Source: Alphaproteobacteria bacterium (GTDB lineage: Bacteria > Pseudomonadota > Alphaproteobacteria > RF32 > CAG-239). Taken from it: a stretch of DNA of 64,000 bases. The position numbers and the translations under genes are program-made. Below, piece after piece: positions 9,884 to 52,284 of the stretch. Numbering within the stretch: position 1 is the stretch's first letter; each line of letters starts with the position of its first letter. The stretch covers positions 60,263 through 124,262 of the forward strand of contig JAZODJ010000026.1 of assembly GCA_045597005.1 (NCBI GenBank), written 5' to 3'. The notes beneath the pieces were generated by a model, which worked only from the letters and a program-made list of their open reading frames with translations, had not been told where the DNA came from and made no database searches.

Positions 9884-11254
9884 TTATTCAATAAATCTTT
9901 CGTATATTGTATTGTATATTTTTTTATAAAAAGGCTCCTTTATTAACTCAAAATTATTTTTATCAAAACTGTAAAAAACATTTCCCTGATATTTATTTGT
10001 AATAATCTCACCACAACAATTTTTAATAATCAAATTATTATCCTCAGTTGCTTGCAACAATCCGAATTTTTTACATTTCTCCAAACTCAAAATTCCGCTT
10101 GCTCCATATGCAACCTCGATATGCTCTATTGAAGATTCGTCAAAAATCATATTACCGCTATAATATTTACCTATTGTTACATTTCTCAAACTTCCGGAAA
10201 ACGATGCATCAACCTTCCCTGACATCTTTCGTCCTATTTCCAAAGTTTCAATACTATCATCACCCGTAATATTCAAACTTCCTCCGAAATCATCTCCGAT
10301 AGCAAGTTTACGTACTCCCAATATATTATTATAATTGTTTACTTTAACGGTTCCCTTACAATCATCCCCTATTTTCAAAACATCGACACTCTGATTGGTT
10401 GCATAAAAAACACCCCTAAAAGAATCCCCTACAACAATATCTTTTTTCAAAATATTATTAGACAACATAATATCTGCATACGAATAATACCCTATTCCCA
10501 ATGCATATAGACAACTATTACTTATACTTAAATTACCACTATAAATATCCGCTATTTGTAAATTAAAACATTTTTTTGAATCGGAAATACTCAAATTACA
10601 ACGACAATTATTAGCAATAAAAATACTTGCGACAGTTGTTCTTGATAAATTTACCGTACCGGAAAATCTCTCTCCGATAATCAAACTGTCAATATTTTGA
10701 TTATCACGCAAATCCAGATTAATGCTACAGTCTTCATCAATAATAATTCGCGACACTTTTGCATTTGACAACACATAAGAACAATCTCTTGTTCCGGCAG
10801 GAATTCGGATACTGCGAGCTGACAGCTTAACCACATACACTTTTGCAAAATCTATTCCTGAAGCTATTTTTCGTTTAAGCTGTTTTTCAGATAAATATTC
10901 TTCCCGTCCATCAAGATATTTTATTGTCGAAACACCTAAAACATTTGCCACATCTTTGGAAATAGAACATTTTTTTGCACGAATAAACGATACTAAATAC
11001 CCTTTTTCCAAATCAGACAATACTCCGTTTTCAGGTATTAAAACCTGACTGAAAACTTCTCTACATCCTTCTAGCGTTGCCAAAAGCTGATTTTGACGAT
11101 TTTTAAAAAACAGAGAACATTTATTTCCTTTTATTCTTACTATCCTATAATCTTTATTAATGTTATAAACAACAGCTTCATCGTTTTGTTCCGTCACTTT
11201 TTCTCTCCCTTTGTCCATATCATATATTAACTTTTTCCTATATAATATCGGCAT
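9884..11254 (-). CDS. Protein with a helix-turn-helix-like N-terminal module and C-terminal BspA/TpLRR-type leucine-rich repeats
   Basis: HTH-like segment SISKDVANVLGVSTIKYL. The C-terminus carries roughly 20-23-aa repeats of the form I..IG..F.G...L (for example LKIGDDCKGTVKV and LAIGDDFGGSLNI). Confidence 0.55.
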   Translation of the reverse strand: MPILYRKKLIYDMDKGREKVTEQNDEAVVYNINKDYRIVRIKGNKCSLFFKNRQNQLLATLEGCREVFSQVLIPENGVLSDLEKGYLVSFIRAKKCSISKDVANVLGVSTIKYLDGREEYLSEKQLKRKIASGIDFAKVYVVKLSARSIRIPAGTRDCSYVLSNAKVSRIIIDEDCSINLDLRDNQNIDSLIIGERFSGTVNLSRTTVASIFIANNCRCNLSISDSKKCFNLQIADIYSGNLSISNSCLYALGIGYYSYADIMLSNNILKKDIVVGDSFRGVFYATNQSVDVLKIGDDCKGTVKVNNYNNILGVRKLAIGDDFGGSLNITGDDSIETLEIGRKMSGKVDASFSGSLRNVTIGKYYSGNMIFDESSIEHIEVAYGASGILSLEKCKKFGLLQATEDNNLIIKNCCGEIITNKYQGNVFYSFDKNNFELIKEPFYKKIYNTIYERFIE

Positions 11255-17880: not shown

Positions 17881-20800
17881 TTAATTTAGTTTATTTAATG
17901 CTCTTGCCAAAACATAATAAAGACGTCCCATATCAGCTCCTGAAATAACAGCCATCAAAGCCGCCGAATGTTCATGAGACTTAGATTTTTCTACCAAAGT
18001 TTCAAATTCTTTCATATATGTATCAACTAATTTTCGTAATTCATCATTCTTTTCAAATTCTTTACGCAAAGCACTAATTTGTGAATTACTCATATTTTTG
18101 GCAACAGATCTGATAAATACTTGAGTATCACCATTATAAAACTTCTTCCATAAATCTTCTTCATCACGCGGTTTTAACAACCTGTTTACATCCACAGAAA
18201 CACTTTCTAAAACACTTATAATTTTTGCTGCATCTTTCAAAAATGTATCAACTTTAACATCTTTATATACCGTTGACAAACCTTTCATAACCTTTTCGGC
18301 TTTATTGGCCGTATCGGTAAGTGTTTTGGTTTGTATCGTTACAGTATCATTAAATCTAATACTTTCTTTAACAATATTTTGTCCTTGGGTTTCAAAAGCC
18401 TTTCCTGCATCCACTAAATCAGATAAACTCTTATTAACCTTATCTGCAGTATTGTCAGCCATTGCTGTCAAAGCTTGAGATTGTTTTACAAAAACATCTC
18501 CTGATGACAAAATACTATTAGAAATTCTTTCGGCATTAGCAGCCACTTCATTAAGCGTTGCTCTCAGCCTATCACCTGATTTTTCCATATGAGTAGCACT
18601 TAGCTTTACAGCATCGTCCATTTCTATTCCTAGTTTTTTCAAATCCTGTCCCAAACTTCTGACTTTATCATATGCATCATTAGCCCTGTCGGCCAATTTA
18701 TTAGATGTATCATTCAAAACAGTATTAAAACAATCTACTAACTTTTTGGTATCTTCTGATATTTGAACCATTTTATTGCTTTGAACTGAAATCAAATTAT
18801 TTATTTCAACCACTCCGGTAGATGTTTCTGCCGTAATAGTATTAAAACCGGCCAAATATTTTTCATATTCATTAAATACACCATTAATATTTTCAACAGA
18901 ATGAAATATTGTTGTATCTAAATCCTCACTACACTGATTCAAACGCAAACTTGTCTGATCAATATTTTTTATAGAATCTTTTGCTGCTTTACTAATTGCA
19001 TCACAAGCTTTCAATAATCTGTCACCCAAAACATCAAATTCATATGACAATTTTGTTGTTGTATCAAAAATATTACCGGTATTTTCTTTAAAATTAGTAT
19101 TAATTTCTTGCATTTTAGTCGCAACATCAACAGTTGCATCTGTCAAATACTTAAATTGTTGCGCAAATGATGCTTCTCCTAACCTTGCTTGCGTAGCTAA
19201 AGTATTAATTACTTCAGTAATATTATTCTTTTGCACTTCAAGCATGTGTGCAATACCTTCACCTTGTGAAATCATCTTTAAACCGGTGTTTTCCATATAT
19301 TTTGTTTGTTCATTAAATTTTTGCCATGTTGTCTCGTTTTCTTCCAACAAATCTTTTTGAATCTCTGACAAACGCGACGATGTATCTGAAATTTCTTGCA
19401 ATGTTTCTCCGGCACTAATTTTCATTGTTGAAATTGCAGTATTAAAATCATCCAAATTAAGCTTTACAACATCCACAACACTATTTAACTTAGTAATCGC
19501 ATCTTCAACAGTTTGTATTGTTAATTCGTGTTTAGCCGTCAAGAGTTTTTCAATTTCAGCTAATTCTTTAATTGATTTTTGTGAGTTTGCCACAACAGTT
19601 TCAGCTTTATGCCCTGTATCCTCCTCCAAAATTGTCAAACGAGCAAACAATTTATCGGCTCCCTCTTCTATTCCCGTCATCTGTTTTCTCAAAATTTCAG
19701 ACATTCGATTTGTATTTTCTGAAACTTTCTCACAATAAGTGTTAAAATCTGCTTCTTGTTGACGGAATAACAAATTAATCGTAGCAATCTTATTATCTAA
19801 ACCGGATACCGTATCTGTAATATATTCGGCAGCAACCTTTGATATATCATTAACCATATCGCTCTTAGCTGCAAAATCAGATATCGATTTATTCAAAACA
19901 GCTTCAGATGTTGTGGTAACTTCGTTAAGTTTCTTAATGTGTTTATCTAAATCATTACCTATTTTTTCGTTTTTATCTTCAATATTACTCGTCAATACTT
20001 CCATTGATTGCGACTGTTTAATTAAAATATTTTCAAATTGAGCAACTTTTGCCATTGTCCTGTTCGCTGAAGTATCAAACTGATTGGCCTGTTCAAGCAA
20101 ATTATCATTAATGGTTTTACTTTTATTAATGGCATCATTACATTGCGTTAACATCTTAGCTATATTTGATTTCAAAACTTCCAAAATATTAGCTGCATCT
20201 TTTTCTAAAGTCTCTGATGCTGTTGACAATTCATCAATTTGACGTTTCAATTCATTCTTAATATCTTCAACATGAGCAGCTGTATCGGTAATATGTTTTT
20301 GTTGTTGAGCTAAAGATGCTTCACTTATCTGACTTTGTGTAACAACTATCGATGATGCTTCAGTTAAACTGTTTGTATGTTTATTCATCAACGATGCAAC
20401 CTTATTTATACTCTCTATCGATTGAGCCGTTTGTACCATCATATTTTCGGTAGAAGCATTTATTCCTTTATCAACTTCCGCTAACTGATTCAAATTTCCT
20501 GCAATATTTTTTTGTAAAGTACTATAGCGATTATTCAAAACATCCGTAAGTCCAACAAGTTTATCAATACTATTACCACTTAACTTACCAAATTCATCAA
20601 CTTTCATATTCAAACTATTAATATATGATACAATATCATCATTAGCAATCGAAACCTTATCATCTAAATAGTTTACACTCTCTGCCAAAGATGTTTCCAC
20701 ACTTTGCATTGCTGTAACAGCTTTATCGGAAACGTTCGTAAGATTCGCTACTTGCATAGCAACGGAATCCTCCAAATTAGAGGTTCTGACCATAATCTTA

Positions 20801-22071
20801 TCCAACTCTTGAGCAATATTTTCACCGAACGCCGCAAATTTTTTATTAACTCCATCTGCCCGTTCATCCAAAACTTTTACAAAAGCGATAATATCTTTAT
20901 TATGCTTAGTCAACGACTCTTCAATCTTTTGAATTTGCAAATCCACTACATTATCAACATCATCAAAACCTTTTTTTATGTTATTATTGATAATACCAAC
21001 ATTAGATATTGCTGTTTTTGTAATATCTTCCGTTTTATCTTTCATCTCTTTGGTTGCTTTCTCTAAAACCAACGTTAATTTTTGACTGTGATTATGTAAC
21101 ACATCTTCCATATCCGCAATTTCTTTAGCCACGGTTGTCTTTGCTAAATCACAGTTTGTCATAGCTAAATCAGCCACCTGTTTCAGTGAATTTGCTTGTC
21201 CGACCAAAACTGTTTGCATTTCACCTAAAGTACTGTTTGTTTTTTCGGCAATAAGTTTTAAACTATCATTTGCTTTTACCATATCAATAGTTGAACCATT
21301 GGTTACTTCTCTTAACAAAACAGCAGTATCATTAATTTCCTTAACTTTTGGCAAAAGTTTATCAAATAATGTCATCAAAGACTTTTCAATACCGTTACTG
21401 TCATCCATAAACTCTTTGTTTAACTGAGCAAACCTTTGACTTGATACTTGTGTCTTATTCAACATATTATCAAAATTAGCCATTAAAAATTTAACACCAT
21501 CACTAAGTTCCACAATCGTTTTGGTTGAATAATTATCTAATTTTCCTACTAATTTGGCAAAATCATCCACGTTGTTTTTTATAGCATCTTTAATTTGTGA
21601 TGTTTGTTCATGAGCCAATTTTGAAACCTGTTGCAATTCAACAACTTGCGAACGGATTGCATCAGCCATTGCTTTCGCGGTCTGGGGAGCACCGTCTTCA
21701 GGATAAACCAGCTGATTCATATATGCGCGTAAAAACTTTGCCTCTTGCTTAAAAGATGTTCCGCGGTCAATATAAGCCATAACAACCCAAATAATTGCTA
21801 AAGGCAATGTAACACCAGCCAAAAAACCACCAAATTCATCAGGCATCATCAAAAACAAATTTGACCACCCAAAAAATTGAGTTATATAAATCAATACAAT
21901 AGCAAACCAAACAATACTTACACTAACCATCAACTTGTGTAAATTAGTATTTAGCCAAGATTGCTTTTCTTCTATTTCAATTGAATTTTGATAATTATTG
22001 TTTTCATTCATAAACTGCGGTAAAACTGTAACCTTACCGTTATCAGCTGTTTTATCAGACATCTGAAACAT
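17881..22071 (-). CDS. Giant membrane-anchored alpha-helical/coiled-coil protein of 1396 aa
   Basis: A short N-terminal cytoplasmic segment is followed by two hydrophobic helices (residues about 47-100). The remaining roughly 1250 aa are heptad-like and hydrophilic, rich in N/K/E/Q/L and without enzymatic motifs. Confidence 0.6.
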   Translation of the reverse strand: MFQMSDKTADNGKVTVLPQFMNENNNYQNSIEIEEKQSWLNTNLHKLMVSVSIVWFAIVLIYITQFFGWSNLFLMMPDEFGGFLAGVTLPLAIIWVVMAYIDRGTSFKQEAKFLRAYMNQLVYPEDGAPQTAKAMADAIRSQVVELQQVSKLAHEQTSQIKDAIKNNVDDFAKLVGKLDNYSTKTIVELSDGVKFLMANFDNMLNKTQVSSQRFAQLNKEFMDDSNGIEKSLMTLFDKLLPKVKEINDTAVLLREVTNGSTIDMVKANDSLKLIAEKTNSTLGEMQTVLVGQANSLKQVADLAMTNCDLAKTTVAKEIADMEDVLHNHSQKLTLVLEKATKEMKDKTEDITKTAISNVGIINNNIKKGFDDVDNVVDLQIQKIEESLTKHNKDIIAFVKVLDERADGVNKKFAAFGENIAQELDKIMVRTSNLEDSVAMQVANLTNVSDKAVTAMQSVETSLAESVNYLDDKVSIANDDIVSYINSLNMKVDEFGKLSGNSIDKLVGLTDVLNNRYSTLQKNIAGNLNQLAEVDKGINASTENMMVQTAQSIESINKVASLMNKHTNSLTEASSIVVTQSQISEASLAQQQKHITDTAAHVEDIKNELKRQIDELSTASETLEKDAANILEVLKSNIAKMLTQCNDAINKSKTINDNLLEQANQFDTSANRTMAKVAQFENILIKQSQSMEVLTSNIEDKNEKIGNDLDKHIKKLNEVTTTSEAVLNKSISDFAAKSDMVNDISKVAAEYITDTVSGLDNKIATINLLFRQQEADFNTYCEKVSENTNRMSEILRKQMTGIEEGADKLFARLTILEEDTGHKAETVVANSQKSIKELAEIEKLLTAKHELTIQTVEDAITKLNSVVDVVKLNLDDFNTAISTMKISAGETLQEISDTSSRLSEIQKDLLEENETTWQKFNEQTKYMENTGLKMISQGEGIAHMLEVQKNNITEVINTLATQARLGEASFAQQFKYLTDATVDVATKMQEINTNFKENTGNIFDTTTKLSYEFDVLGDRLLKACDAISKAAKDSIKNIDQTSLRLNQCSEDLDTTIFHSVENINGVFNEYEKYLAGFNTITAETSTGVVEINNLISVQSNKMVQISEDTKKLVDCFNTVLNDTSNKLADRANDAYDKVRSLGQDLKKLGIEMDDAVKLSATHMEKSGDRLRATLNEVAANAERISNSILSSGDVFVKQSQALTAMADNTADKVNKSLSDLVDAGKAFETQGQNIVKESIRFNDTVTIQTKTLTDTANKAEKVMKGLSTVYKDVKVDTFLKDAAKIISVLESVSVDVNRLLKPRDEEDLWKKFYNGDTQVFIRSVAKNMSNSQISALRKEFEKNDELRKLVDTYMKEFETLVEKSKSHEHSAALMAVISGADMGRLYYVLARALNKLN

Positions 22072-29719: not shown

Positions 29720-29816
29720 GTTTGATTAATAAAAAAAACTACGGCTAAGTTAGAAAAGAACTAAGACCATGGGCGGAAATGAATTTCCGCCCTTTTCCTT
29801 TTTTTATCATATTATA

Positions 29817-31268
29817 TTATTTCATATCTTTTTGGTTTTGACCTTGTTCTACATAGGTTTCAACCTGACGAGCTGCTTTTTTGGCCAAAGCTATACATCC
29901 CGGACCGGCAATACAACCGCCCTCACAACACATAACTTCAATCATATTATTTTCACACCCTTTTGTAGCATAGCGTTTCAATAATTTGATATTTTCTTTA
30001 CTCAAACCATCGATTCTTTCCGGTCTGAAATCAACCTTTCCTTCAACCAAATTACCAACCGCAGCGGCAACACCGCCGGACAGCGGATATTTACGTGCTT
30101 GTGCTGACGAAACTTTTGCAAATTCTGTCGGTTCACAATCACCGATTTCGATTCCGGCACCGACAAACATTGCTCCGATTTCTTCAAATGTCAAAACATA
30201 ATCAACATTAGGATCATATTCGGCCTCTGTACGTTTTGCCAAACAAGGACCTACAAACACGGAAATACAATCCGGTTGCTCTTTTTTAAGCATCTCAGCC
30301 GTATAATACATCGGCGTTTTCGTATTTGATACATACTCTTTTAATTCCGGAATATGAACTTGTGCCGCTCTGTAATAAGCCGGACAACAAGAAGTTGTCA
30401 TAAATTTAGCACCTTCTTCCATACGCTCAATAAATTCTGCCGATTCATTTGTTGATGTAATATCAGCACCGGCTGCAACCTCAACAACATCAGCAAATCC
30501 GGCTTTTTTCAAAGCTCCGACAACTTGTTTCAATTCAAACGGAAACTGTCCGACAACCGCAGGAGCAAGCATTGCCACGACTTTTTTGTCACTATTGTGT
30601 ATCAAATTTAATACATCAACTAATTGCGAACGTTCTACAATCGCTCCAAAAGGACAAGATTGCAAACATTTACCGCAAGAAATACAAGCTTCTTCATCAA
30701 TATGTTCAACCCCGTTCTCATCTTTTCTGATTGCACCTACAGGACAAGCTTCTTCACAAGGAACCGGCAACTTAACAATTGCATGATACGGACAGACTTC
30801 CATACATTTTCCGCAAGAAACACACATATCAGGATCTATATGAGATTTTCCGTTTACAAACGAAATAGCTTGCTTTGGACAATTCATAACACACGGACGA
30901 GCAAAACACCCTCTGCACGCATCAGTAACCATATATTGCGACTTAACACATGCCGAACATGCAATATCAATTACCGACAAACAACTTTTAGCATGATTTT
31001 GACGTTTTAACGCTTGTTTGCCATACTCACGCAACGTTGTAACCTCGCTAACTTCTTCTTGAGGTGTAATTCCCATAGCAGCCATAAGACGATACTTCAA
31101 AATGGCTCTATCTTTATAAATACAACAACGGCTTGAATCATAGTCCTTAGGACGCATCTCTATAGGAATCTCATCCGCTGTTTCAAAACGATCTTTATAA
31201 AAACTTTCAACAACCTTAACCAGAATTCTTGTGCGCATCTGGTTTGCATAATTCTTAGGTATTAACAA
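29817..31268 (-). CDS. [FeFe]-hydrogenase-like protein (HfsD-like) with N-terminal multi-[4Fe-4S] ferredoxin domains and an atypical H-cluster domain
   Basis: Several CxxCxxCxxxCP clusters. H-domain motifs TTSCCPAY (L1), GPCLAKRTE (L2) and EVMCCEGGCIAGPG (L3). L3 deviates from the canonical MACPGGC. Confidence 0.75.
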   Translation of the reverse strand: MLIPKNYANQMRTRILVKVVESFYKDRFETADEIPIEMRPKDYDSSRCCIYKDRAILKYRLMAAMGITPQEEVSEVTTLREYGKQALKRQNHAKSCLSVIDIACSACVKSQYMVTDACRGCFARPCVMNCPKQAISFVNGKSHIDPDMCVSCGKCMEVCPYHAIVKLPVPCEEACPVGAIRKDENGVEHIDEEACISCGKCLQSCPFGAIVERSQLVDVLNLIHNSDKKVVAMLAPAVVGQFPFELKQVVGALKKAGFADVVEVAAGADITSTNESAEFIERMEEGAKFMTTSCCPAYYRAAQVHIPELKEYVSNTKTPMYYTAEMLKKEQPDCISVFVGPCLAKRTEAEYDPNVDYVLTFEEIGAMFVGAGIEIGDCEPTEFAKVSSAQARKYPLSGGVAAAVGNLVEGKVDFRPERIDGLSKENIKLLKRYATKGCENNMIEVMCCEGGCIAGPGCIALAKKAARQVETYVEQGQNQKDMK

Positions 31269-31534
31269 TTCTCTTCTTCCTCTTTTGCAATTACTTCTCT
31301 GATCTTAGATACAACTTTTTCCAATGTTGCTTCTTCAATTAATTCTCCGTTAACTTCAACAAAAGGTCCTTTGTTATAACCACCTTTATTACAATGATTC
31401 ATACATCTGACCTCTGTAATTTCGATTTTATCAGCCAAATCTTCCGGAGCCGAAAACTCCAAAGCTTGAACTTGCGGCGCACCCATTACAAAACAAGCTG
31501 TTCCCGCACAAATTTTTACTTTTACTTTTTCCAT
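31262..31534 (-). CDS. Thioredoxin-like [2Fe-2S] ferredoxin, NuoE/HoxE-like
   Basis: Cys pattern C-x4-C...C-x3-C (CAGTAC, CMNHC). Overlaps the downstream gene by 7 nt. Confidence 0.65.
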   Translation of the reverse strand: MEKVKVKICAGTACFVMGAPQVQALEFSAPEDLADKIEITEVRCMNHCNKGGYNKGPFVEVNGELIEEATLEKVVSKIREVIAKEEEENC

Positions 31535-31553
31535 CTGCTTTTATCCTTTTTTA

Positions 31554-32732
31554 TTAAACATATTTAACGCTTATCTCTTTTAAGAATTTGCTTTGCAGAA
31601 TTCTAAAAATCTTTTTAACAATATTTCTGCGAATGTCAAGCTCCATCGGCAAATTTGGATCCTGATGAGCTTCATTTATTTTTGTTCCGACAACAAAATC
31701 AATTTTATCTGAATCCAACAACAATCTGGTCAATCTGGTTGCTGCGTTATCTTTGTCTTCGTCAAGACCTTCTTTCAACATCCGATAAACATCCGTCAGA
31801 GTAAGAATTCCTTCTGTTACCAAATCAATTCCTGGCATTATTGATGCCATAGGTATATTAGGATCAAAGGTTGTTTTATCCATTTCACACTTCAGACAAA
31901 GCTCTCTTTCAATAATATTTGCCGTAGTACCGCCGCAAATTGCCGTTTTTCCATCATAATAATCTATCATTTCAGCAATCTCTTTGTCTTTTTCCTCATC
32001 AAACGGCGGACCACTCAACAACAACAATTTTCTGGGCTTTCTAAAATAAACAACCGTACAACTTATATCATCTCCGGCCTTTCCTTCGGGTTCTTTTGAA
32101 AGTGCCTCATGAACTATAGCTTCAGCTAAATCTGTTGCAGAAATATGCGGATGACGTCTTATTTGATTTTCAATAAACTTCCACACACCTTCCCGTTGCC
32201 ACCCTAACGGATATTTAGGATTTCCCAATCCTGCTTGTGTAACTCCGTCAGACATAATTATGATTCTGTCTTCTTCTTGAGCTAAAAATTGGTAAACATT
32301 TATAATTCTATCTTTCCAATTTTCAGCCGTAATTTCATGATGAGCCGGACAATATTGCTGAAAATCTCTGACAATAAAACACCCCGGATTATCCATTTCA
32401 TAAATTCTTGTTTTTCCTTCGAGCATTGCATCAATTATTGAAAAAGTTGCATAGCTTATTTTTCTTACCTGACAAACAGGCAAGGCTTGCATCATCACTT
32501 CGGCCGAACGAACCAAATCCAAATCACTCTCAACAAACTTAATTGCCATTCTTGATGTCATTGAAGACAAAATATTTGCTTTTACTCCGCTTCCCAAACC
32601 ATCAGACAAAACTGTTATTATACGCTGCTCTTCCGGCAATTTTTTCGATGCTACCGAATCACCAAAACAATTCTCACTATATTTATGTTCTTGATGTGAG
32701 CCTATTTCAATATAAAGAGAATCGCTCATCAA
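31554..32732 (-). CDS. SpoIIE/PP2C-family serine phosphatase (HfsC-like) with an additional C-terminal domain
   Basis: PP2C motifs (VLSDGLGSG, MSDGVTQAG, GDDISCTV). Overlaps the hydS stop by 4 nt. Confidence 0.7.
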   Translation of the reverse strand: MMSDSLYIEIGSHQEHKYSENCFGDSVASKKLPEEQRIITVLSDGLGSGVKANILSSMTSRMAIKFVESDLDLVRSAEVMMQALPVCQVRKISYATFSIIDAMLEGKTRIYEMDNPGCFIVRDFQQYCPAHHEITAENWKDRIINVYQFLAQEEDRIIIMSDGVTQAGLGNPKYPLGWQREGVWKFIENQIRRHPHISATDLAEAIVHEALSKEPEGKAGDDISCTVVYFRKPRKLLLLSGPPFDEEKDKEIAEMIDYYDGKTAICGGTTANIIERELCLKCEMDKTTFDPNIPMASIMPGIDLVTEGILTLTDVYRMLKEGLDEDKDNAATRLTRLLLDSDKIDFVVGTKINEAHQDPNLPMELDIRRNIVKKIFRILQSKFLKEISVKYV

Positions 32733-34486
32733 CTATTCCTTCTGTTTCGAATCGTTATATTGGGTCTGTCTGTAACATCTCCGGCATAATCCTTTGCTAT
32801 AGAACGCAACAAAACCTCTGTTTCTGCCATATGTTCACCTAATGTACACGCAATTTGTTGTACCGTTGCCAAATTCTTTTCAATAACTTCTTTAGCCTTT
32901 TCTGCTATTTTTTCACGCTTAATTTCAACATTGGTAACATCTTCGATTACTCCGCCGACAACCTGTTTTTGCTCGATATTAAACACCATAACATCATAAA
33001 CTTTATCATTATGATGAGCATTTTCTCGTTTTACATCTTCACCCAAGTCCAACGAAGCAGAAAATAAATTTGTAAAACTTATAAAATCACGTAAATTAGC
33101 TCCGATTAAATTTCCTCTGTCATATATATCGGCATGTGCCTCATCATTCCAAAAAGCATCTAAAAATTGTTCATTATACTCTATAATTGAAAGCTTTGAA
33201 TTTACAATTACAATAGGAGACGGAATACATTTCAACAATGCATTGGCCTTGCGCTGAGCCTGATGTTTGATATGCGACACACACATATCAATTTCAGCCT
33301 TTCCATCCAAAATAGCCTTTGCAAAATTTCTACAATTATCATATCCGCAAGCATTACAATTTATCTCATCTTCTATTGTATGTTTACCTAAAATTTTCAA
33401 CACTCTTTTTATTTGTTCTTCATCATATATTTTACTTACAACAGGGGCATTCTTATATTCACAAGTTATATCAATTTCATTTTTTCTTTTTCCGGTATTT
33501 TTGGAAATTTTAACATCATTCAACACTCTGGCTCTTTTTTCAAATCCTGATTTATGACCTCTGGTGCAAGGTCCGTTTACACACCCTCCTTCACAAGCCA
33601 AACATTCTATAAACACCGGATTTTTAGGATGCGTCCCTTTAATATCAGATAATTCCCTTTGAATATTATCCAAACCTGTTAACTGCATCATATAAACGTG
33701 ATCGGTCTTTTTATAACGCTTTATTGTTTCAATCATTCCTCCTTCAATAGGATAATAGCGTCCCTCTTCCGCATTTTTATAAATAAAATCAATTCCTTTT
33801 CGAGGTTCAATATTATGATAATTAATACCGGCCTCACGGAACCATCTGCGCAAATCCCTAAAAGAGATACTTAAATTTAACAAATTACCGTTTCTATCTG
33901 CTTCAAACTTCTTTGCAATACAAGGACCTACAAAAACAATCTTTATATTTTTTCCCAGTTTTTCTCTCATTAATTTACAATGAGCCAACAAAGGCGATAC
34001 AACCGGTGTCAAATTTTCAGTCAACTCCGGCATATATTTATTAATATATTCCACAAAAGACGGACATGCCGTTGAAAGATATATGCCATTTGTTTTATCT
34101 GACAAAAAATCAGCCAAATGTGCCGAAACTTCTTCTGCCCCTACAGCTGTTTCACTAACACCTGAAAAACCTAACTTTTCAATTGCCGTAAGCAGTTGTT
34201 CTTTTGTAACATTATCAAATTCTGCTATCCATGAAGGCGCTAATGATACATAAATTTTTTCGCCGGTTGCCAACATATTTTTAGCTCTTGTAACATCATC
34301 TCTATCTTGTTTTGCTCTTACCGGACAAACTTTATAGCACGTACCGCAAGCAACGCATAATTCAGGCACTATTTGTGCCGAATTATCTTCAATTTTTATT
34401 GCTTTTACCGGACATCTTCTTACACACTTATAACAATCCTGACAATTATTTTTAACCGTAAACAACGGATGAATTCTGCTGGACAT
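32729..34486 (-). CDS. hydS: Putative sensory [FeFe]-hydrogenase (HydS/HfsB-like): two N-terminal [4Fe-4S] motifs, an H-cluster domain and a C-terminal PAS domain
   Basis: CxxCxxCxxxCP twice. L1 is STACPSF, with one Cys replaced as in HydS. L2 is GPCIAKKFE and L3 is ECLACEGGCVNGP. The C-terminal roughly 130 aa are PAS-like. Confidence 0.75.
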   Translation of the reverse strand: MSSRIHPLFTVKNNCQDCYKCVRRCPVKAIKIEDNSAQIVPELCVACGTCYKVCPVRAKQDRDDVTRAKNMLATGEKIYVSLAPSWIAEFDNVTKEQLLTAIEKLGFSGVSETAVGAEEVSAHLADFLSDKTNGIYLSTACPSFVEYINKYMPELTENLTPVVSPLLAHCKLMREKLGKNIKIVFVGPCIAKKFEADRNGNLLNLSISFRDLRRWFREAGINYHNIEPRKGIDFIYKNAEEGRYYPIEGGMIETIKRYKKTDHVYMMQLTGLDNIQRELSDIKGTHPKNPVFIECLACEGGCVNGPCTRGHKSGFEKRARVLNDVKISKNTGKRKNEIDITCEYKNAPVVSKIYDEEQIKRVLKILGKHTIEDEINCNACGYDNCRNFAKAILDGKAEIDMCVSHIKHQAQRKANALLKCIPSPIVIVNSKLSIIEYNEQFLDAFWNDEAHADIYDRGNLIGANLRDFISFTNLFSASLDLGEDVKRENAHHNDKVYDVMVFNIEQKQVVGGVIEDVTNVEIKREKIAEKAKEVIEKNLATVQQIACTLGEHMAETEVLLRSIAKDYAGDVTDRPNITIRNRRNS

Positions 34487-34492
34487 TGAAAC

Positions 34493-34735
34493 TTACCCCT
34501 TAAAAACTTTATCAAGAATATCTATAAGTGTTCCTGAATCAACATTATTATATTCAACCCCTTCAATCGTAAGATTAGGTCCCTTAGAACACAAATCACA
34601 ACATCTTAATCCGCTGAGTTCTATTTCTGCCTCTAAGTTATTATCTTTAAGATACTTTGATATAAGTTGTAAATTTTGGTTATTTCCTCTTGCAAAACAA
34701 GAACTCCCCATACAAATTTGTATCTTTTTAGACAT
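34493..34735 (-). CDS. Thioredoxin-like [2Fe-2S] ferredoxin (HfsA-like small subunit)
   Basis: CMGSSC...RCCDLC four-Cys pattern. 80 aa. Confidence 0.6.
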   Translation of the reverse strand: MSKKIQICMGSSCFARGNNQNLQLISKYLKDNNLEAEIELSGLRCCDLCSKGPNLTIEGVEYNNVDSGTLIDILDKVFKG

Positions 34736-34780
34736 TAAACCATCCTCCTCCGATTAAAGGGGTTATTTTACATAGTCATC

Positions 34781-37375
34781 CTATATTTTTCCGTTAAAAG
34801 CATCAAGATAAATTTTTCTTATATCTTCCATTAACGGATAAACAGGATTTGCACCGGTGCATTGATCATCAAAAGCATTCTCAACCAACCAATCCAGTTT
34901 GGCTTCAAAATCTTTTTTACTTATACCCCAGTCTTTAATAGATGCCGGAATATCAACTTCTTTTTTCAAAGCTTCAATAGCTTCAATTAAAGCATCGATT
35001 TTCTCATCTTCCGTTTTACCTTTCAAATTCAAATTATTTGCAATTTGAGCATAACGTCTTTTAGCTTCCGGCATTTTATATTGCGGGAAAATTGCCTGCT
35101 TGCGCGGACAATCGGTAGCATTATACTTAATAACCTGATTAATCAATAATGCATTAGCAATACCATGCGGAATATTAAATGCAGCCCCCAATTTATGTGC
35201 CATTGAATGACACAATCCCAAGAAAGAGTTTGCAAATGCCATACCGGCAATTGTAGCTGCGTGATGCATTTTCTCTCTTGCTTTCGGGTCATTAGCACCT
35301 TCTTTATATGCTCTCGGCAAATATCTGAATACTTGCTTAATGGCTTCTAAAGCTGTCGAATTAGTAAAGTTTGTAGCCATAACCGACACATAAGCTTCAA
35401 TAGCATGAACCAATGCGTCAATTCCACCTGCCGAAGTCAAACCTTTAGGCATATTATCAACAAAATTTGCATCAATAATAGCCATATTCGGTGTCAATGC
35501 ATAATCAGCCAACGCATATTTTACATGTGTTTCGTCATCTGTAATAACAGCAAAAGGTGTAACTTCAGATCCTGTTCCTGACGTCGTTGGAATAGCCACC
35601 ATAGAAGCCTTTTTACCCAATTCACCGATAGTACAAATACGTTTTCTGATGTCCATAAAACGCATTGCCACATCTTCAAATGCGATTTCCGGTTTTTCAT
35701 ATTTAAGCCACATAACCTTAGCAGCATCCATCGGAGAACCGCCACCGAATGAAATAAATACATCCGGCTTAAACACATTAATCATAACAAGAGCTTCTTC
35801 AATAGTAGCTATTGTCGGATCTGGTTTAACATCAAAGAAAATTTGATATTCAATATCCATATCTTCCAGTACATTGGTAATAGCATTAACCATACCGGAA
35901 TCAAATAAATATCTATCCGTAACAATAAAAGCCCTTTTCTTTCCTTCTAATTCTCTCAAAGCAACATCCGTTGCTCCGCGCTTAAAATAAATTTTTGGTG
36001 GAACTCTGAACCACAACATATTTTCTCTCCTCTCGGCAACGGTTTTATAGTTTAACAAATGTTTTACACCAACATTTTCACTCACTGAGTTGCCTCCCCA
36101 TGATCCGCAACCCAATGTTAATGACGGCTCCAATCTAAAGTTAAACAAATCTCCTATACCTCCTTGAGATGAAGGAGAGTTAATTAATAAACGACCTGTA
36201 GGCAATTTTGTCGCAAAATAATCAACTCGATCTTGTTTGCGAGTATCCGTATAAAGCACAGATGTATGCCCCATTCCGCCAAGTTCTACCAAAGCCAAAG
36301 CCTTATCAACAGCTTTTTCAAAATCATCAGCTTTATACAAAGTCAAAATCGGAGACAATTTTTCATGAGCAAACGGATTTGTTACATCAACTGATGTTTG
36401 TTCTGACAACAATACCTTTGAATATTCCGGAACGGAAATCCCTGCCATTTTAGCAATTTTTACTGCAGGTTGACCTACTATTTCCGGATTAACACCTTTC
36501 GGCGTTAATATAATTTTAGCCAACTTATCAGCTTCTTTTGCTGTTAACAAATACGCACCGCGACGCACAAATTCCTGCTTAACTTTTTCATAAACGGATT
36601 TAATGGCTATAACAGATTGTTCCGAAGCGCAAATCATTCCATTGTCAAAAGTCTTAGACATCAATATATACGATACAGCCATTTCCAAATCAGCTGTTTC
36701 ATCAATAACGGCCGGAGTATTTCCCGCACCGACACCTAATGCCGGTTTTCCTGATGAATATGCAGCCTTTACCATACCGGGACCGCCTGTCGCTAAAATT
36801 CCATGAACATCAGGATGTTTCATCAACATGTCTGTAAGCTCCAAAGACGGCTCATCAATCCATCCTATAATATTTTCCGGAGCACCTGCTTTAACAGCTG
36901 CTTCATAAACAACTTTAGCTGCTTCGATTGTTGATTTTTTAGCTCGTGGATGTGGTGAAAAAATAATTGCATTACGTGTCTTCAAACAAATAAGTGATTT
37001 AAATATAGCCGTAGATGTCGGATTTGTTGTCGGTATAACACCGGCAACGATTCCCAAAGGTTCTGCCACAATCTTAATTCCGTTTGTCTTATCAGATTTT
37101 ATAATACCGCATGTTTTTTCATTTTTGTATTTATTGTATATATATTCTGACGCAAAATGGTTTTTAATAATTTTATCTTCAACAACACCCATTCCCGTAT
37201 CACTCGCCGCCATTTTAGCTAAAGGAATACGAGCCTTATCTGCTGCTGTAGCCGCAGCCTTAAAAATACGATTAATTTTATCCTGTTCAAACGTTGCAAA
37301 AACTCTTTGAGCCTCTTTAACTTTTTTTATCAAGGCTTCCAAATCTTTTACTGTTTTAACTTCTTTATTTGCCAT
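34781..37375 (-). CDS. adhE: Bifunctional aldehyde/alcohol dehydrogenase AdhE
   Basis: N-terminal ALDH domain with the catalytic Cys region. C-terminal Fe-ADH domain (GGGSPMDAAK, HxxxH). 864 aa. Confidence 0.92.
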   Translation of the reverse strand: MANKEVKTVKDLEALIKKVKEAQRVFATFEQDKINRIFKAAATAADKARIPLAKMAASDTGMGVVEDKIIKNHFASEYIYNKYKNEKTCGIIKSDKTNGIKIVAEPLGIVAGVIPTTNPTSTAIFKSLICLKTRNAIIFSPHPRAKKSTIEAAKVVYEAAVKAGAPENIIGWIDEPSLELTDMLMKHPDVHGILATGGPGMVKAAYSSGKPALGVGAGNTPAVIDETADLEMAVSYILMSKTFDNGMICASEQSVIAIKSVYEKVKQEFVRRGAYLLTAKEADKLAKIILTPKGVNPEIVGQPAVKIAKMAGISVPEYSKVLLSEQTSVDVTNPFAHEKLSPILTLYKADDFEKAVDKALALVELGGMGHTSVLYTDTRKQDRVDYFATKLPTGRLLINSPSSQGGIGDLFNFRLEPSLTLGCGSWGGNSVSENVGVKHLLNYKTVAERRENMLWFRVPPKIYFKRGATDVALRELEGKKRAFIVTDRYLFDSGMVNAITNVLEDMDIEYQIFFDVKPDPTIATIEEALVMINVFKPDVFISFGGGSPMDAAKVMWLKYEKPEIAFEDVAMRFMDIRKRICTIGELGKKASMVAIPTTSGTGSEVTPFAVITDDETHVKYALADYALTPNMAIIDANFVDNMPKGLTSAGGIDALVHAIEAYVSVMATNFTNSTALEAIKQVFRYLPRAYKEGANDPKAREKMHHAATIAGMAFANSFLGLCHSMAHKLGAAFNIPHGIANALLINQVIKYNATDCPRKQAIFPQYKMPEAKRRYAQIANNLNLKGKTEDEKIDALIEAIEALKKEVDIPASIKDWGISKKDFEAKLDWLVENAFDDQCTGANPVYPLMEDIRKIYLDAFNGKI

Positions 37376-39326: not shown

Positions 39327-40709
39327 TTATAAACAAATTTTAAAAATAGTATATTTATCAACACCCGATCTTACAAAAATTTTAGCACCTATAGCCAAAG
39401 CCGTTTTTTTAACAATATTTAACCCTATTCCGATACCGCCTTTTTTACGATCATCTTTTTCATTACATTGATAAAAAGCATCAAAAATATGTTTTTTTGC
39501 ACATTCATTTATTCCTATGCCATCATCAATAACCCAAAAACAATTTTCATCATTACCTATAACTATTTTTGTCTTTGCATATTTAACAGCATTACTCAAC
39601 AAATTACGCACAATACGTTCAAGTAAAAAAGTATCCTGATAAACAATTGTTGTTTTTAACCTGAATATTATATTTTTTTCTGTAGTTTGTTTATACTCAT
39701 CAGCAATCTTTCTCAATAATTCAGCCAAATCAAAATACTGAGGATCAAACATTGTCTCTCCAGAATCAAACTTTGCAAAATCCAACAAATTATTGAGCAT
39801 TGTTGATAAATTTTTACTCAACAACAATATCTTGTCAGCTATTTCAGCATATTTTGAAATCGGTGCCGTCTTTAATCCTTCCGCAAATAAATTTATTGCT
39901 TGCAACGGTTGTCTTATATCATGACCGGCTTGTGCCAAAAAGTAAGTTTTTGCCAAATTAGCCTCTTCAGCTTTTACTTTTGCAGTTGTTAATTCAGCTT
40001 GAATTTTAATTAACTCACTCACATCTTGAAAAACACCGGCAATTTTTTCTTCTCCGTTTTCATAAATAATTCCAGCCATAAAACGACAATATTTTAAGAT
40101 ATTATTTTTACTGACAATTCTTACTTGTCCTTGTATATCATTCTTTTTATTAACCAATTCTTTTATTTTTTGTTTATAGATATACAAATCATCTTTATGT
40201 ATTAATTTGCGAATCAAATTTGAATGATATGATCCTTTATCTTTGTCTATTCCGAATAGCTTATACATCTCATCGGACCAATAAAATTGCTTTTTTATTA
40301 AATCTAACTCCCAATAACCTGTTTTAGATATTTTCTCAACAAATTTTATTCTCTGACTATTTACTTGTAACAAATGCGCTAATTGCCTTTTTTCGGAAAT
40401 ATCATCCAAAACCACCCAAACACTTTTATCTTTCGGATAAACATACACCAGATAAAATCTCTGTTGAAATTTCCAATAGAAATGGTGAGGATGATTATGA
40501 TAAAAAGCAATTTCCATATTTTTTAACAAGACTTCTGCATCATCAAGAGACAGAATATCGCTAATTTTCTTTGCTGTCACAATATTGCTGAACACACAAT
40601 TTGCCTTTTGATTAAAAAACAAAATCATACCGGATTTTGTAAGTTCCAGCATTACAGAATTTGAAATATCAGCAATAGTTTTTGATGTTTTATCTTTAAT
40701 ACAACTCAT
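39327..40709 (-). CDS. Sensor histidine kinase (PAS-HisKA-HATPase). It is cytoplasmic, and no response regulator lies adjacent.
   Basis: HisKA H-box (FLAQAGHDIRQPL) and HATPase_c N/G boxes (VIDDGIGI, GGIGIGL). N-terminal PAS-like repeats. Confidence 0.75.
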   Translation of the reverse strand: MSCIKDKTSKTIADISNSVMLELTKSGMILFFNQKANCVFSNIVTAKKISDILSLDDAEVLLKNMEIAFYHNHPHHFYWKFQQRFYLVYVYPKDKSVWVVLDDISEKRQLAHLLQVNSQRIKFVEKISKTGYWELDLIKKQFYWSDEMYKLFGIDKDKGSYHSNLIRKLIHKDDLYIYKQKIKELVNKKNDIQGQVRIVSKNNILKYCRFMAGIIYENGEEKIAGVFQDVSELIKIQAELTTAKVKAEEANLAKTYFLAQAGHDIRQPLQAINLFAEGLKTAPISKYAEIADKILLLSKNLSTMLNNLLDFAKFDSGETMFDPQYFDLAELLRKIADEYKQTTEKNIIFRLKTTIVYQDTFLLERIVRNLLSNAVKYAKTKIVIGNDENCFWVIDDGIGINECAKKHIFDAFYQCNEKDDRKKGGIGIGLNIVKKTALAIGAKIFVRSGVDKYTIFKICL

Positions 40710-51087: not shown

Positions 51088-52284
51088 ATGGCAAAAGACA
51101 ACTTTAGCCGCATGAACATTACCGAGGGTAAGTTTATGCTTGAGAGTAAAAGAGTTTCAGACAAGTATGGTTGCGGTGCAGTCGGAAGACAGGAAATGAC
51201 ACGTCGTGTCAAAGTAAAGGAACAACGACCGTTGCCTCCCCAAACTAACTCTCAAAGGATTTTTGAGATAGCCGAAAAAATCGGAGGTCTTCTTCCCGGT
51301 GAGGCGTTTGAATATCCGACACTTTACGGATACCAAATAGCCCGGATGTGTTCTTTAATGAACATTCCAGAAATGGTAAATCCGTTTTTGGTTTGTTTCA
51401 GCGGACATATGGGTGCTCCGCTCTTTGCAATGGAAGCTATTCGCTTCTATGCAAAGAAATATGGCAAGCTGTTACCATTTCTTGCCATTGGCAAAGGCGG
51501 TAATAAAGGACTTTTTGAAAAGGTTTACAACCGTAGTGAAGGTATTGTTGTCAGCTCTGAAGCTGAAGCCTACTGCAACATCATGTCGATGATGGCTCCT
51601 GAAACTTACGTCCGTAAGTATCAGCAAACTTTCAACGATATGGATACTGAAGGCAATCTGCGCGAATTATACCGCTTTGCTAAGGAACACGGTTTGCAGG
51701 AAGTATCATACATCCTTGTAACGGGACAACCTTGGTATGACAAGCGTGTCTTAGCAGAATGGATGTGGATGCTGAACAGAGACGAGTTCGCCGAGATTAA
51801 AATAAATCTCATCATGGTACATTGTCCGATTTGGCTCAAAGGTCACACACCGGATACATCCATAAGCGAAATCAGCTTGGGATACGTTGCCGCAAGTCTT
51901 GGTCCTTTAACAAAGGACACAATTGGTTTTGATGGCAAAACTAAATCCGACAGACCAGAACGCTACCTGATACCTAGTCTTTCAGGAATAAGTTGGCAAC
52001 CGGTCAAAGAAATAATAACTAAGTGTAACAACATGGGATGGCCAGACTATTCCAAATTGTTGTACAACACGCCTCATGACGAGGCTGTGGCGGAAGTTTT
52101 TATGGCGCATCTGTTTGCACTAAAGAGCTTCAGTGCCAACACCTACGACGAAGGTATCAAAAAAGACATCGAGTATTACAAATACAAAATGTCTTTGTGT
52201 AGTGCCGGTTATTTCAACGGTACTACAGAGGAAGAATTTCTTGAATGGTGTCAAAAAACACCAAACAAATTATTCTTCCAATAA
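51088..52284 (+). CDS. DUF218/YdcF-like domain protein with an N-terminal extension. Its GC content is visibly higher than that of its neighbours.
   Basis: YdcF-like core (...IVVSSEAEAYCNIM...DTEGNLRE...ILVTGQPWYDKRV...). Local GC is roughly 40% or more, against about 30% in the flanks. AT-rich 200-bp region upstream. Confidence 0.5.
   Translation: MAKDNFSRMNITEGKFMLESKRVSDKYGCGAVGRQEMTRRVKVKEQRPLPPQTNSQRIFEIAEKIGGLLPGEAFEYPTLYGYQIARMCSLMNIPEMVNPFLVCFSGHMGAPLFAMEAIRFYAKKYGKLLPFLAIGKGGNKGLFEKVYNRSEGIVVSSEAEAYCNIMSMMAPETYVRKYQQTFNDMDTEGNLRELYRFAKEHGLQEVSYILVTGQPWYDKRVLAEWMWMLNRDEFAEIKINLIMVHCPIWLKGHTPDTSISEISLGYVAASLGPLTKDTIGFDGKTKSDRPERYLIPSLSGISWQPVKEIITKCNNMGWPDYSKLLYNTPHDEAVAEVFMAHLFALKSFSANTYDEGIKKDIEYYKYKMSLCSAGYFNGTTEEEFLEWCQKTPNKLFFQ

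Follow-up and report, generated by a model that had tools for sequence, protein, structure and literature searches.

The window considered here is a 64,000-nucleotide (64-kb) stretch of contig JAZODJ010000026.1 from an alphaproteobacterium, and the subject of this analysis is a run of six minus-strand genes in it, which encodes two [FeFe]-hydrogenase-like paralogs of 585 and 483 amino acids (aa). Taken as a whole, the six genes very probably form a single fermentative redox-control operon of an uncultured, low-GC gut alphaproteobacterium, which combines a putative H2 sensor (the 585-aa protein, called HydS below), a presumably working group B hydrogenase (the 483-aa protein, HydB) and the bifunctional aldehyde/alcohol dehydrogenase AdhE. 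An earlier sequence-only reading, which had compared the H-cluster motifs of the two paralogs with the canonical ones, had suggested that possibly neither is a catalytic hydrogenase. This holds for the 585-aa protein, which is sensor-like, and fails for the 483-aa protein, which has the sequence of a regular group B hydrogenase.

Motif register of the two paralogs

The register of the motifs was determined using phmmer alignments of both paralogs to CpI (1c4a/3c8y/4xdc) and to HydA1 of 8a6t, and the coordinates were re-translated. Residue positions such as C299, M353, M497 and 498 are given in CpI numbering. In these alignments, the motifs quoted earlier for both proteins fall in the canonical L1/L2/L3 register; both open reading frames (ORFs) exist on the minus strand as had been stated, and the alignment with CpI, a check set beforehand, shows that the motifs are present and not offset. 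The two proteins are distant paralogs, with 29% identity over 292 residues.

The 483-aa protein, HydB

As judged by its sequence, HydB is a true group B [FeFe] hydrogenase of the ferredoxin type, in which both the H-cluster site and the proton pathway are complete. It consists of a conserved N-terminal region, a Cys-rich ferredoxin-like region (30654-30983) and the H-domain, in that order. The motifs are located as follows.

30375..30446, minus strand: proton-pathway stretch ESAEFIER (equivalents of E279, E282 and R286), together with L1 (alignments)
30375-30395, minus strand: L1, TSCCPAY, with C299 and C300 kept and W303 replaced by Tyr (CpI alignment)
30225-30251, minus strand: L2, GPCLAKRTE, with M353 replaced by Gly and C355, K358 and E361 kept (CpI alignment)
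29901..29939, minus strand: L3, EVMCCEGGCIAGP, with M497, C499 and C503 kept, A498 replaced by Cys, Glu at position 500 and G507 replaced by Pro (CpI alignment)

The H-cluster ligands are C295, C342, C448 and C452 (equivalent to C300, C355, C499 and C503), the relay cysteine is C294 (equivalent to C299), and the whole group A proton pathway is retained, with equivalents of C299, E279, S319, E282 and R286. The earlier description of this protein (both cysteines of L1 kept, Trp changed to Tyr, Ala of L3 changed to Cys, and Glu at position 500) is confirmed by the comparison with CpI.

HydB matches the NCBIfam model of monomeric [FeFe] hydrogenases, TIGR04105, with 540.9 bits (cut-off, 450), and the match spans residues 6-459 of the protein and positions 3-459 of the 462 of the model. 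Neither a PAS domain nor a C-terminal Cx2Cx4Cx16C motif was found in HydB by Pfam and motif scanning. HydDB describes class B as enzymes that "may couple Fdred oxidation to H2 evolution" (PMC5037454). Two other assignments were considered and rejected. The group A model TIGR02512, representing the prototypical enzyme, gives 144.2 bits, below its cut-off of 405.95, and L2 starts with Gly instead of Met353; the B2/M2a class, with TSCCCP, does not fit an L1 that has two cysteines and no CCC triad.

To see the motif variants against their own family, 1.84 billion cluster representatives were searched, and 92 full-length group B members, one per 50%-identity cluster, were aligned using MAFFT. Gly occupies the M353 position in 83 of the 92 members and Pro the G507 position in 63, and the W303 position is filled by Phe, Tyr or Trp (35, 34 and 21 members, respectively). 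Glu is the commonest residue at position 500 (33/92; Pro, 17/92), and position 498 carries Ala in 46, Ser in 11 and Cys in 9 members. The pathway residues are largely kept (E279 in 90, E282 in 82, S319 in 87 and C299 in 88). The variants of HydB are also the norm among 120 of its close homologs. The apparently odd residues of HydB are thus usual in the family. The Glu in L3 had been pointed out as an unusual feature shared by the two paralogs; it is indeed present in both, but it does not link them in any special way because Glu is the most frequent residue at this position in group B.

The only clade-specific feature of HydB is the Cys at position 498 (residue C447, 29928-29930; EVMCCEGGC), which directly precedes the bridging cysteine. 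Alphaproteobacterial homologs typically have it, and so does one further locus (L077); the position varies among Ala, Ser, Thr and Cys in other group B enzymes.

The 585-aa protein, HydS

HydS contains, from the N-terminus, a 2x[4Fe-4S] region, the H-domain, a Cx2Cx4Cx16C cluster, a PAS domain and a C-terminal helix.

34313-34453, minus strand: 2x[4Fe-4S] region (Fer4 families, residues 12-58)
34055..34075, minus strand: L1, STACPSF, with the proton-relay C299 replaced by Ala (CpI alignment)
33902-33928, minus strand: L2, GPCIAKKFE, with M353 replaced by Gly (CpI alignment)
33569..33607, minus strand: L3, ECLACEGGCVNGP, with M497 replaced by Leu and Glu at position 500 (CpI alignment)
33281-33358, minus strand: Cx2Cx4Cx16C cluster, residues 377-402 (motif; PF04060 at residues 375-403, E=4.7e-10)
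about 32927-33229, minus strand: predicted PAS domain (sub-threshold Pfam match, fold matches)

The four H-cluster cysteines are kept (C141, C189, C298 and C302), and E279, E282 and R286 are not retained in any of the alignments; HydS is predicted to bind the H-cluster without having the proton relay. Both STACP and the four-cysteine motif are conserved in all of the 120 closest HydS homologs. PAS_9 of Pfam matches with E=0.008 and 16.9 bits against a threshold of 27 (7 of 17 members). In the AlphaFold2 (AF2) model of residues 345-585, the mean predicted local distance difference test (pLDDT) value is 58.7 but rises to 72-87 across most of the stretch predicted as PAS; the top matches of this model in a Foldseek search against the PDB are almost all PAS domains.

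The published features of group C (M2f) proteins include loss of the proton-relay Cys and of the proton-pathway residues, an N-terminal 2x[4Fe-4S] region, a C-terminal Cx2Cx4Cx16C motif and a PAS domain (PMC8163306). On all of these sequence hallmarks HydS is a group C (M2f) putative H2 sensor, and the earlier suggestion of a sensory HydS-like protein with the relay Cys changed to Ala is borne out by the hallmarks and by the adjacent gene for a PP2C phosphatase. This is already the textbook view of such proteins, although the literature, including PMC5037454, still terms the sensory role of group C enzymes putative. Since a PP2C gene adjoins hydS, the protein belongs to class C3 of HydDB, which is defined as "phosphatase-linked" (PMC5037454). 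Group D (M2e, the class of the Thermoanaerobacter mathranii protein TamHydS), which is characterized by the absence of PAS and by Ser or Thr at position 353 (PMC8163306), was ruled out by the PAS domain and the Gly at 353.

Organization of the operon

The six genes follow one another in the same orientation on the minus strand (29817-37375), in the order adhE, fdx80 (the 80-aa ferredoxin), hydS, pp2C, fdx90 (the 90-aa ferredoxin) and hydB. In order of transcription, they are as follows.

34781..37375, minus strand: adhE, bifunctional aldehyde/alcohol dehydrogenase, 864 aa (Pfam Aldedh, Fe-ADH and ADH_Fe_C)
34493..34735, minus strand: fdx80, small thioredoxin-like [2Fe-2S] ferredoxin, 80 aa, directly upstream of hydS (Pfam PF01257, E=5.8e-8)
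32729..34486, minus strand: hydS, putative H2 sensor, 585 aa (Pfam Fe_hyd_lg_C, 5.8e-48; PF04060, 4.7e-10; weak PAS_9)
31554..32732, minus strand: pp2C, SpoIIE/RsbU-type PP2C Ser/Thr phosphatase, 391-392 aa (Pfam SpoIIE, profile search, Foldseek)
31262..31534, minus strand: fdx90, second thioredoxin-like [2Fe-2S] ferredoxin, 90 aa (Pfam PF01257, E=1.1e-6)
29817..31268, minus strand: hydB, monomeric group B [FeFe] hydrogenase, 483 aa (TIGR04105; Pfam Fe_hyd_lg_C, 6.3e-60, and Fer4 families)

All the junctions are of 45 nucleotides (nt) or less, and two of them are overlaps: the stop codon of hydS overlaps the start of pp2C, and that of fdx90 overlaps the TTG start of hydB. This TTG start is supported by the conservation of the resulting N-terminus, MLIPKN..., in homologs. 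The longest gap, between adhE and fdx80 (34736-34780), is 45 nt long and contains an GGAGGAGG ribosome-binding site, and no terminator-like site was found on the minus strand between these genes. Because of the short gap and the lack of a terminator, adhE is probably co-transcribed with the sensor cassette in the window, and the transcription unit probably starts with it. The operon likely ends at a G+C-rich hairpin between hydB and the convergent proS.

29771..29792, strand not assigned: terminator-like site, 9 pairs, 6 of them G-C

The cysteines of the small proteins are Cys8/13/45(46)/49 in the 80-aa ferredoxin, a Cx4C...Cx3C pattern, and Cys9/14/44/48 in the 90-aa ferredoxin.

A profile search with the phosphatase aligned its residues 7-228 with the structures of SpoIIE and RsbX phosphatases; the top Foldseek matches are PP2C phosphatases, and the metal-binding Asp/Gly motifs are invariant. 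The remainder, residues about 235-392 (31554-32030), forms a C-terminal alpha/beta domain that is also conserved and in which the motifs GGTT, DLVTEG and AHQDP..P...RR are invariant; neither Pfam nor the PDB gave a sequence match to it, and AF2 models it with moderate confidence (50-85).

Conservation of the cassette in related genomes

For the comparison of gene order, species-representative genomes were scanned with the HydS alignment, and the best 80 loci were searched with the six window proteins using tblastn. The closest loci are gut and rumen metagenome-assembled genomes (MAGs) labelled Alphaproteobacteria. Others are labelled Victivallales/Lentisphaeria, Gastranaerophilales/Melainabacteria, Spirochaetes, Planctomycetota, Cloacimonadota and other groups, and none among the best 80 is labelled Firmicutes.

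The pairing of hydS with pp2C is nearly invariable: pp2C follows hydS directly in 77 of the 80 loci, and in the remaining three the contig ends less than 500 nt from hydS. A homolog of the 80-aa ferredoxin is found upstream of hydS in 70 loci, and the complete order fdx-hydS-pp2C-fdx-hydB recurs in 52, which come from several phyla. Position 497 of HydS is Leu in all 75 loci with a readable L3. The HydS of a Cloacimonadota locus (L074) is unusual in that it retains the double Cys, as STCCP.

The partner hydrogenase is more variable. A group B enzyme, 44-96% identical to HydB, is encoded close by in 52 of the 80 loci, almost always on the downstream side of the second ferredoxin, and TSCC and the Glu/Ser pathway residues are kept in all 16 group B partners that were aligned. 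In nine loci, a canonical group A enzyme of 579-1295 aa (as extracted) takes its place as the neighbouring partner, with MFTSCCPAW, IMPCTAKKFE and EVMACPGGC..GAG. The other 19 loci have no visible partner, and about half of these are truncated by a contig end. That the hydrogenase adjacent to the sensor is either a group B or a canonical group A enzyme fits a regulated catalyst rather than another sensor. The 90-aa ferredoxin follows pp2C in 52 of the 52 loci with a group B partner, in contrast to one of the nine with a group A partner, and may be an obligate small subunit of this group B subclass.

An adhE gene is located next to the cassette in eight of the 80 loci, which belong to four groups (L005-L008, L022, L041, L052 and L072). 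Five are the closest alphaproteobacterial MAGs; the others come from a spirochaete, from Sedimentisphaerales and from a MAG labelled Azospirillum.

In the gaps between fdx90 and hydB of seven Melainabacteria-type loci, there are sporadic XRE-type helix-turn-helix genes and unrelated inserts, and no conserved kinase or regulator. The XRE-type genes, at 13680-13904 in L054, 13166-13495 in L063 and 3661-3990 in L083, are candidate local regulators.

Comparison with known systems

The proteins TmHydS and TamHydS, HfsB and HfsD, HydS and HydA2 of Ruminococcus albus, and the Bacteroides fragilis enzyme were compared through their published descriptions and motifs. The PDB sequence matches of the two paralogs include no group C or D chain.

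Judged by its gene content and the published descriptions, the window contains a cluster of the hfs/R. albus type, in which a sensor, a PP2C phosphatase and a ferredoxin-type hydrogenase are linked to adhE. In R. albus 7, an eight-gene cluster with a ferredoxin-only hydrogenase, an alcohol/aldehyde dehydrogenase, the sensory HydS and a phosphatase is down-regulated 111-fold at low H2 (PMC6776011), that is, when a partner organism removes H2 (PMC6776011; PMC10838669). That cluster and the window both bring together a PAS-containing group C sensor, a phosphatase, a ferredoxin-type hydrogenase and AdhE. They differ in the class of the partner hydrogenase, since HydA2 of R. albus is classed as group A1 (PMC6776011) and that of the window is group B, and in the host: R. 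albus is a Firmicute with the cluster on a plasmid, whereas the genes of the alphaproteobacterium lie among housekeeping genes.

The hfsABCD operon of Thermoanaerobacterium saccharolyticum, which encodes ACU11594-ACU11597, has its genes in an order also seen in the window: a small protein, a PAS-containing hydrogenase (HfsB), a PP2C (HfsC) and a ferredoxin-linked group B enzyme (HfsD). HfsD is regarded as ferredoxin-linked and H2-producing, and deletion of hfsB in Thermoanaerobacterium leads to higher adhE expression and ethanol yield (PMC5707799). The window differs from hfsABCD in having two small thioredoxin-like ferredoxins in place of the single HfsA, and in that adhE is physically joined to the operon.

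For HydB, a close published parallel is HydM of B. fragilis (BfHydM), the group B motifs of which are T294SCCPSY, G342PCVAKRKE and E448VMACEGGCISGP (PMC12578642, supplementary text). The two proteins correspond motif by motif: TSCCPSY, GPCVAKRKE and EVMACEGGCISGP at 294, 342 and 448 in BfHydM, against TSCCPAY, GPCLAKRTE and the L3 given above at 292, 340 and 444 in HydB. HydB thus fits the published-style patterns TSCCPxY, GPCxAKRxE and EVMxCEGGCxxGP of an active enzyme: BfHydM bound the H-cluster and evolved H2 at 34% of the rate of CrHydA1 in lysate assays (PMC12578642). Both proteins are of about 55 kDa with multiple ferredoxin-like clusters. They differ at position 498, which is Ala in BfHydM and Cys in HydB. 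The gene of HydB is part of a sensor operon, where it follows that of a small [2Fe-2S] protein.

HydS shares with TmHydS (group C, M2f) the N-terminal 2x[4Fe-4S] region, the absence of Cys at 299, the replacement of M353 by Gly, Cx2Cx4Cx16C and PAS, and differs from it at position 497, which is Ser in TmHydS and Leu in HydS. With TamHydS (group D, M2e) it has in common the absence of Cys299, Leu497 and the C-terminal four-cysteine cluster, but TamHydS is without PAS and has Ser/Thr at 353, where HydS has PAS and Gly.

Maturation of the H-cluster

No ORF of at least 100 aa in the 64-kb window contains the CX3CX2C motif of radical S-adenosylmethionine (radical-SAM) proteins, and HflX is the sole stand-alone GTPase. 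The absence of hydE, hydF and hydG from the window, stated earlier, follows from these two observations. It carries little weight, however, because all three maturases have been reported from related Rhodospirillales MAGs of the human gut, where their accession numbers do not all run consecutively (PMC4967309). Among the contigs listed, the exact proteins of the operon occur only on metagenome contigs of at most 36 kb.

Proposed function and alternative explanations

In the proposed redox-control operon, HydB would re-oxidise reduced ferredoxin by producing H2, and HydS would turn over slowly and so report the H2 partial pressure. The redox state of the H-cluster of HydS would be passed via the C-terminal [4Fe-4S] cluster to the PAS domain, which would modulate the SpoIIE-type PP2C; the phosphatase would in turn alter the phosphorylation of some target and thereby the expression or activity of the ferredoxin hydrogenase and AdhE. 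When H2 accumulates, the cell would shift between H2 and ethanol as electron sinks. Each of the two small [2Fe-2S] proteins would serve a single partner, the one the sensor and the other the enzyme. Regulation of the operon by H2 is suggested here by analogy with the published R. albus and Thermoanaerobacterium clusters.

Several points weigh against this proposal. The cassette contains no conserved kinase, STAS or other partner-switching protein, or transcription factor. Activity, expression and phosphorylation in this organism are all predictions, as is the substrate of PP2C, and the presence of maturases is presumed from related MAGs, the window itself being without hydEFG. The PAS assignment, which we hold with moderate confidence, depends on a sub-threshold Pfam match and a low-confidence model. 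As for HydB, its change of M353 to Gly is also present in the sensor TmHydS, and group B enzymes seem somewhat less active than those of group A1; for example, those of Bacteroides vulgatus and Bacteroides thetaiotaomicron reached only 2-8% of CrHydA1 in lysates.

The absence of a kinase, STAS protein or transcription factor from the cassette, together with the extra domain of PP2C and the presence of one [2Fe-2S] protein per hydrogenase-like protein, also leaves room for a self-contained post-translational feedback on H2. Here, the HydS-controlled PP2C would bypass transcription and act directly, either on the group B hydrogenase with its ferredoxin subunit or on AdhE, and the Cys at 498 might tune or protect the H-cluster. 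We regard such a device as unlikely, while giving it some weight. A different suggestion, made in the sequence-only reading, was that the 483-aa protein might be a second sensor or an enzyme of low turnover, in which case neither paralog would be the one that evolves H2. The Gly at 353 as in TmHydS, the extra Cys beside the bridging Cys of L3, the lower activity of group B enzymes than of group A1 in lysate assays and the lack of maturases in the window speak for it. However, HydB passes the curated group B model, has neither PAS nor the C-terminal Cx2Cx4Cx16C, and keeps the relay Cys and E279, S319, E282 and R286, which published sensors lose; the same motif variants occur in BfHydM with its 34% of the CrHydA1 rate, and in nine related loci the neighbour of the sensor is a canonical group A enzyme. 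The suggestion is thus not upheld, and we consider it improbable.

It might also be asked whether HydS is itself a metabolic, low-rate hydrogenase, such as an uptake enzyme feeding its small [2Fe-2S] partner, with PP2C regulated in some other way. TmHydS and TamHydS are indeed slow catalysts of reversible H+/H2 conversion, a dedicated thioredoxin-like ferredoxin lies upstream of hydS in 70 of the 80 loci, and reviews still call the sensory role putative. Nevertheless, the proton pathway of HydS is lost, the PAS domain and C-terminal cluster are typical of signalling modules, the pairing with pp2C is almost obligatory (77/80 loci), and regulatory phenotypes have been published for the hfsB deletion and the R. 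albus cluster, so that a metabolic HydS appears quite improbable. The most pessimistic interpretation takes both proteins as non-functional relics in an organism unable to mature the H-cluster for want of HydE, HydF and HydG, in keeping with the lack of a radical-SAM or HydF-like ORF in the 64 kb. This is barely credible in view of the strong conservation of both proteins and the cassette across phyla, with invariant cluster ligands, and of the maturases reported in related gut Rhodospirillales MAGs (PMC4967309).

Other features of the window

The neighbourhood of the operon includes housekeeping genes (proS, recO and topoisomerase IV). Two genes upstream of adhE there is a PAS-HisKA-HATPase histidine kinase (39327-40709), with an ATP-binding cassette (ABC) exporter in between. 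In L001, a strain variant from a metagenome, an acetate-kinase fragment (5347-5703) lies downstream of the hydrogenase, at the place that proS has in the window. Elsewhere in the window there are a 1396-aa ORF (17881-22071) and two ORFs with no Pfam match at E<=0.001, of 456 aa (9884-11254) and 398 aa (51088-52284). The G+C content, 29-39%, is very low for an alphaproteobacterium; the best matches of the window are gut and rumen MAGs labelled Alphaproteobacteria, Rhodospirillales or Azospirillum sp. Markers of an anaerobe in the window are rubrerythrin, Fur and the [FeFe] hydrogenases.

Significance

The locus is a known arrangement of sensor, phosphatase, hydrogenase and AdhE in a new host lineage, a little-studied one of gut alphaproteobacteria; it is largely ordinary, and the current understanding of such systems is unchanged by it. 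The analysis also illustrates that motif deviations measured against group A references can mislead. An arrangement known from Firmicutes is now extended to MAGs labelled gut Alphaproteobacteria, Melainabacteria/Gastranaerophilales, Lentisphaerae, Spirochaetes and Planctomycetota, and the finding of adhE beside the cassette in several groups of loci lends support to the link already published between H2 sensing and ethanol formation.

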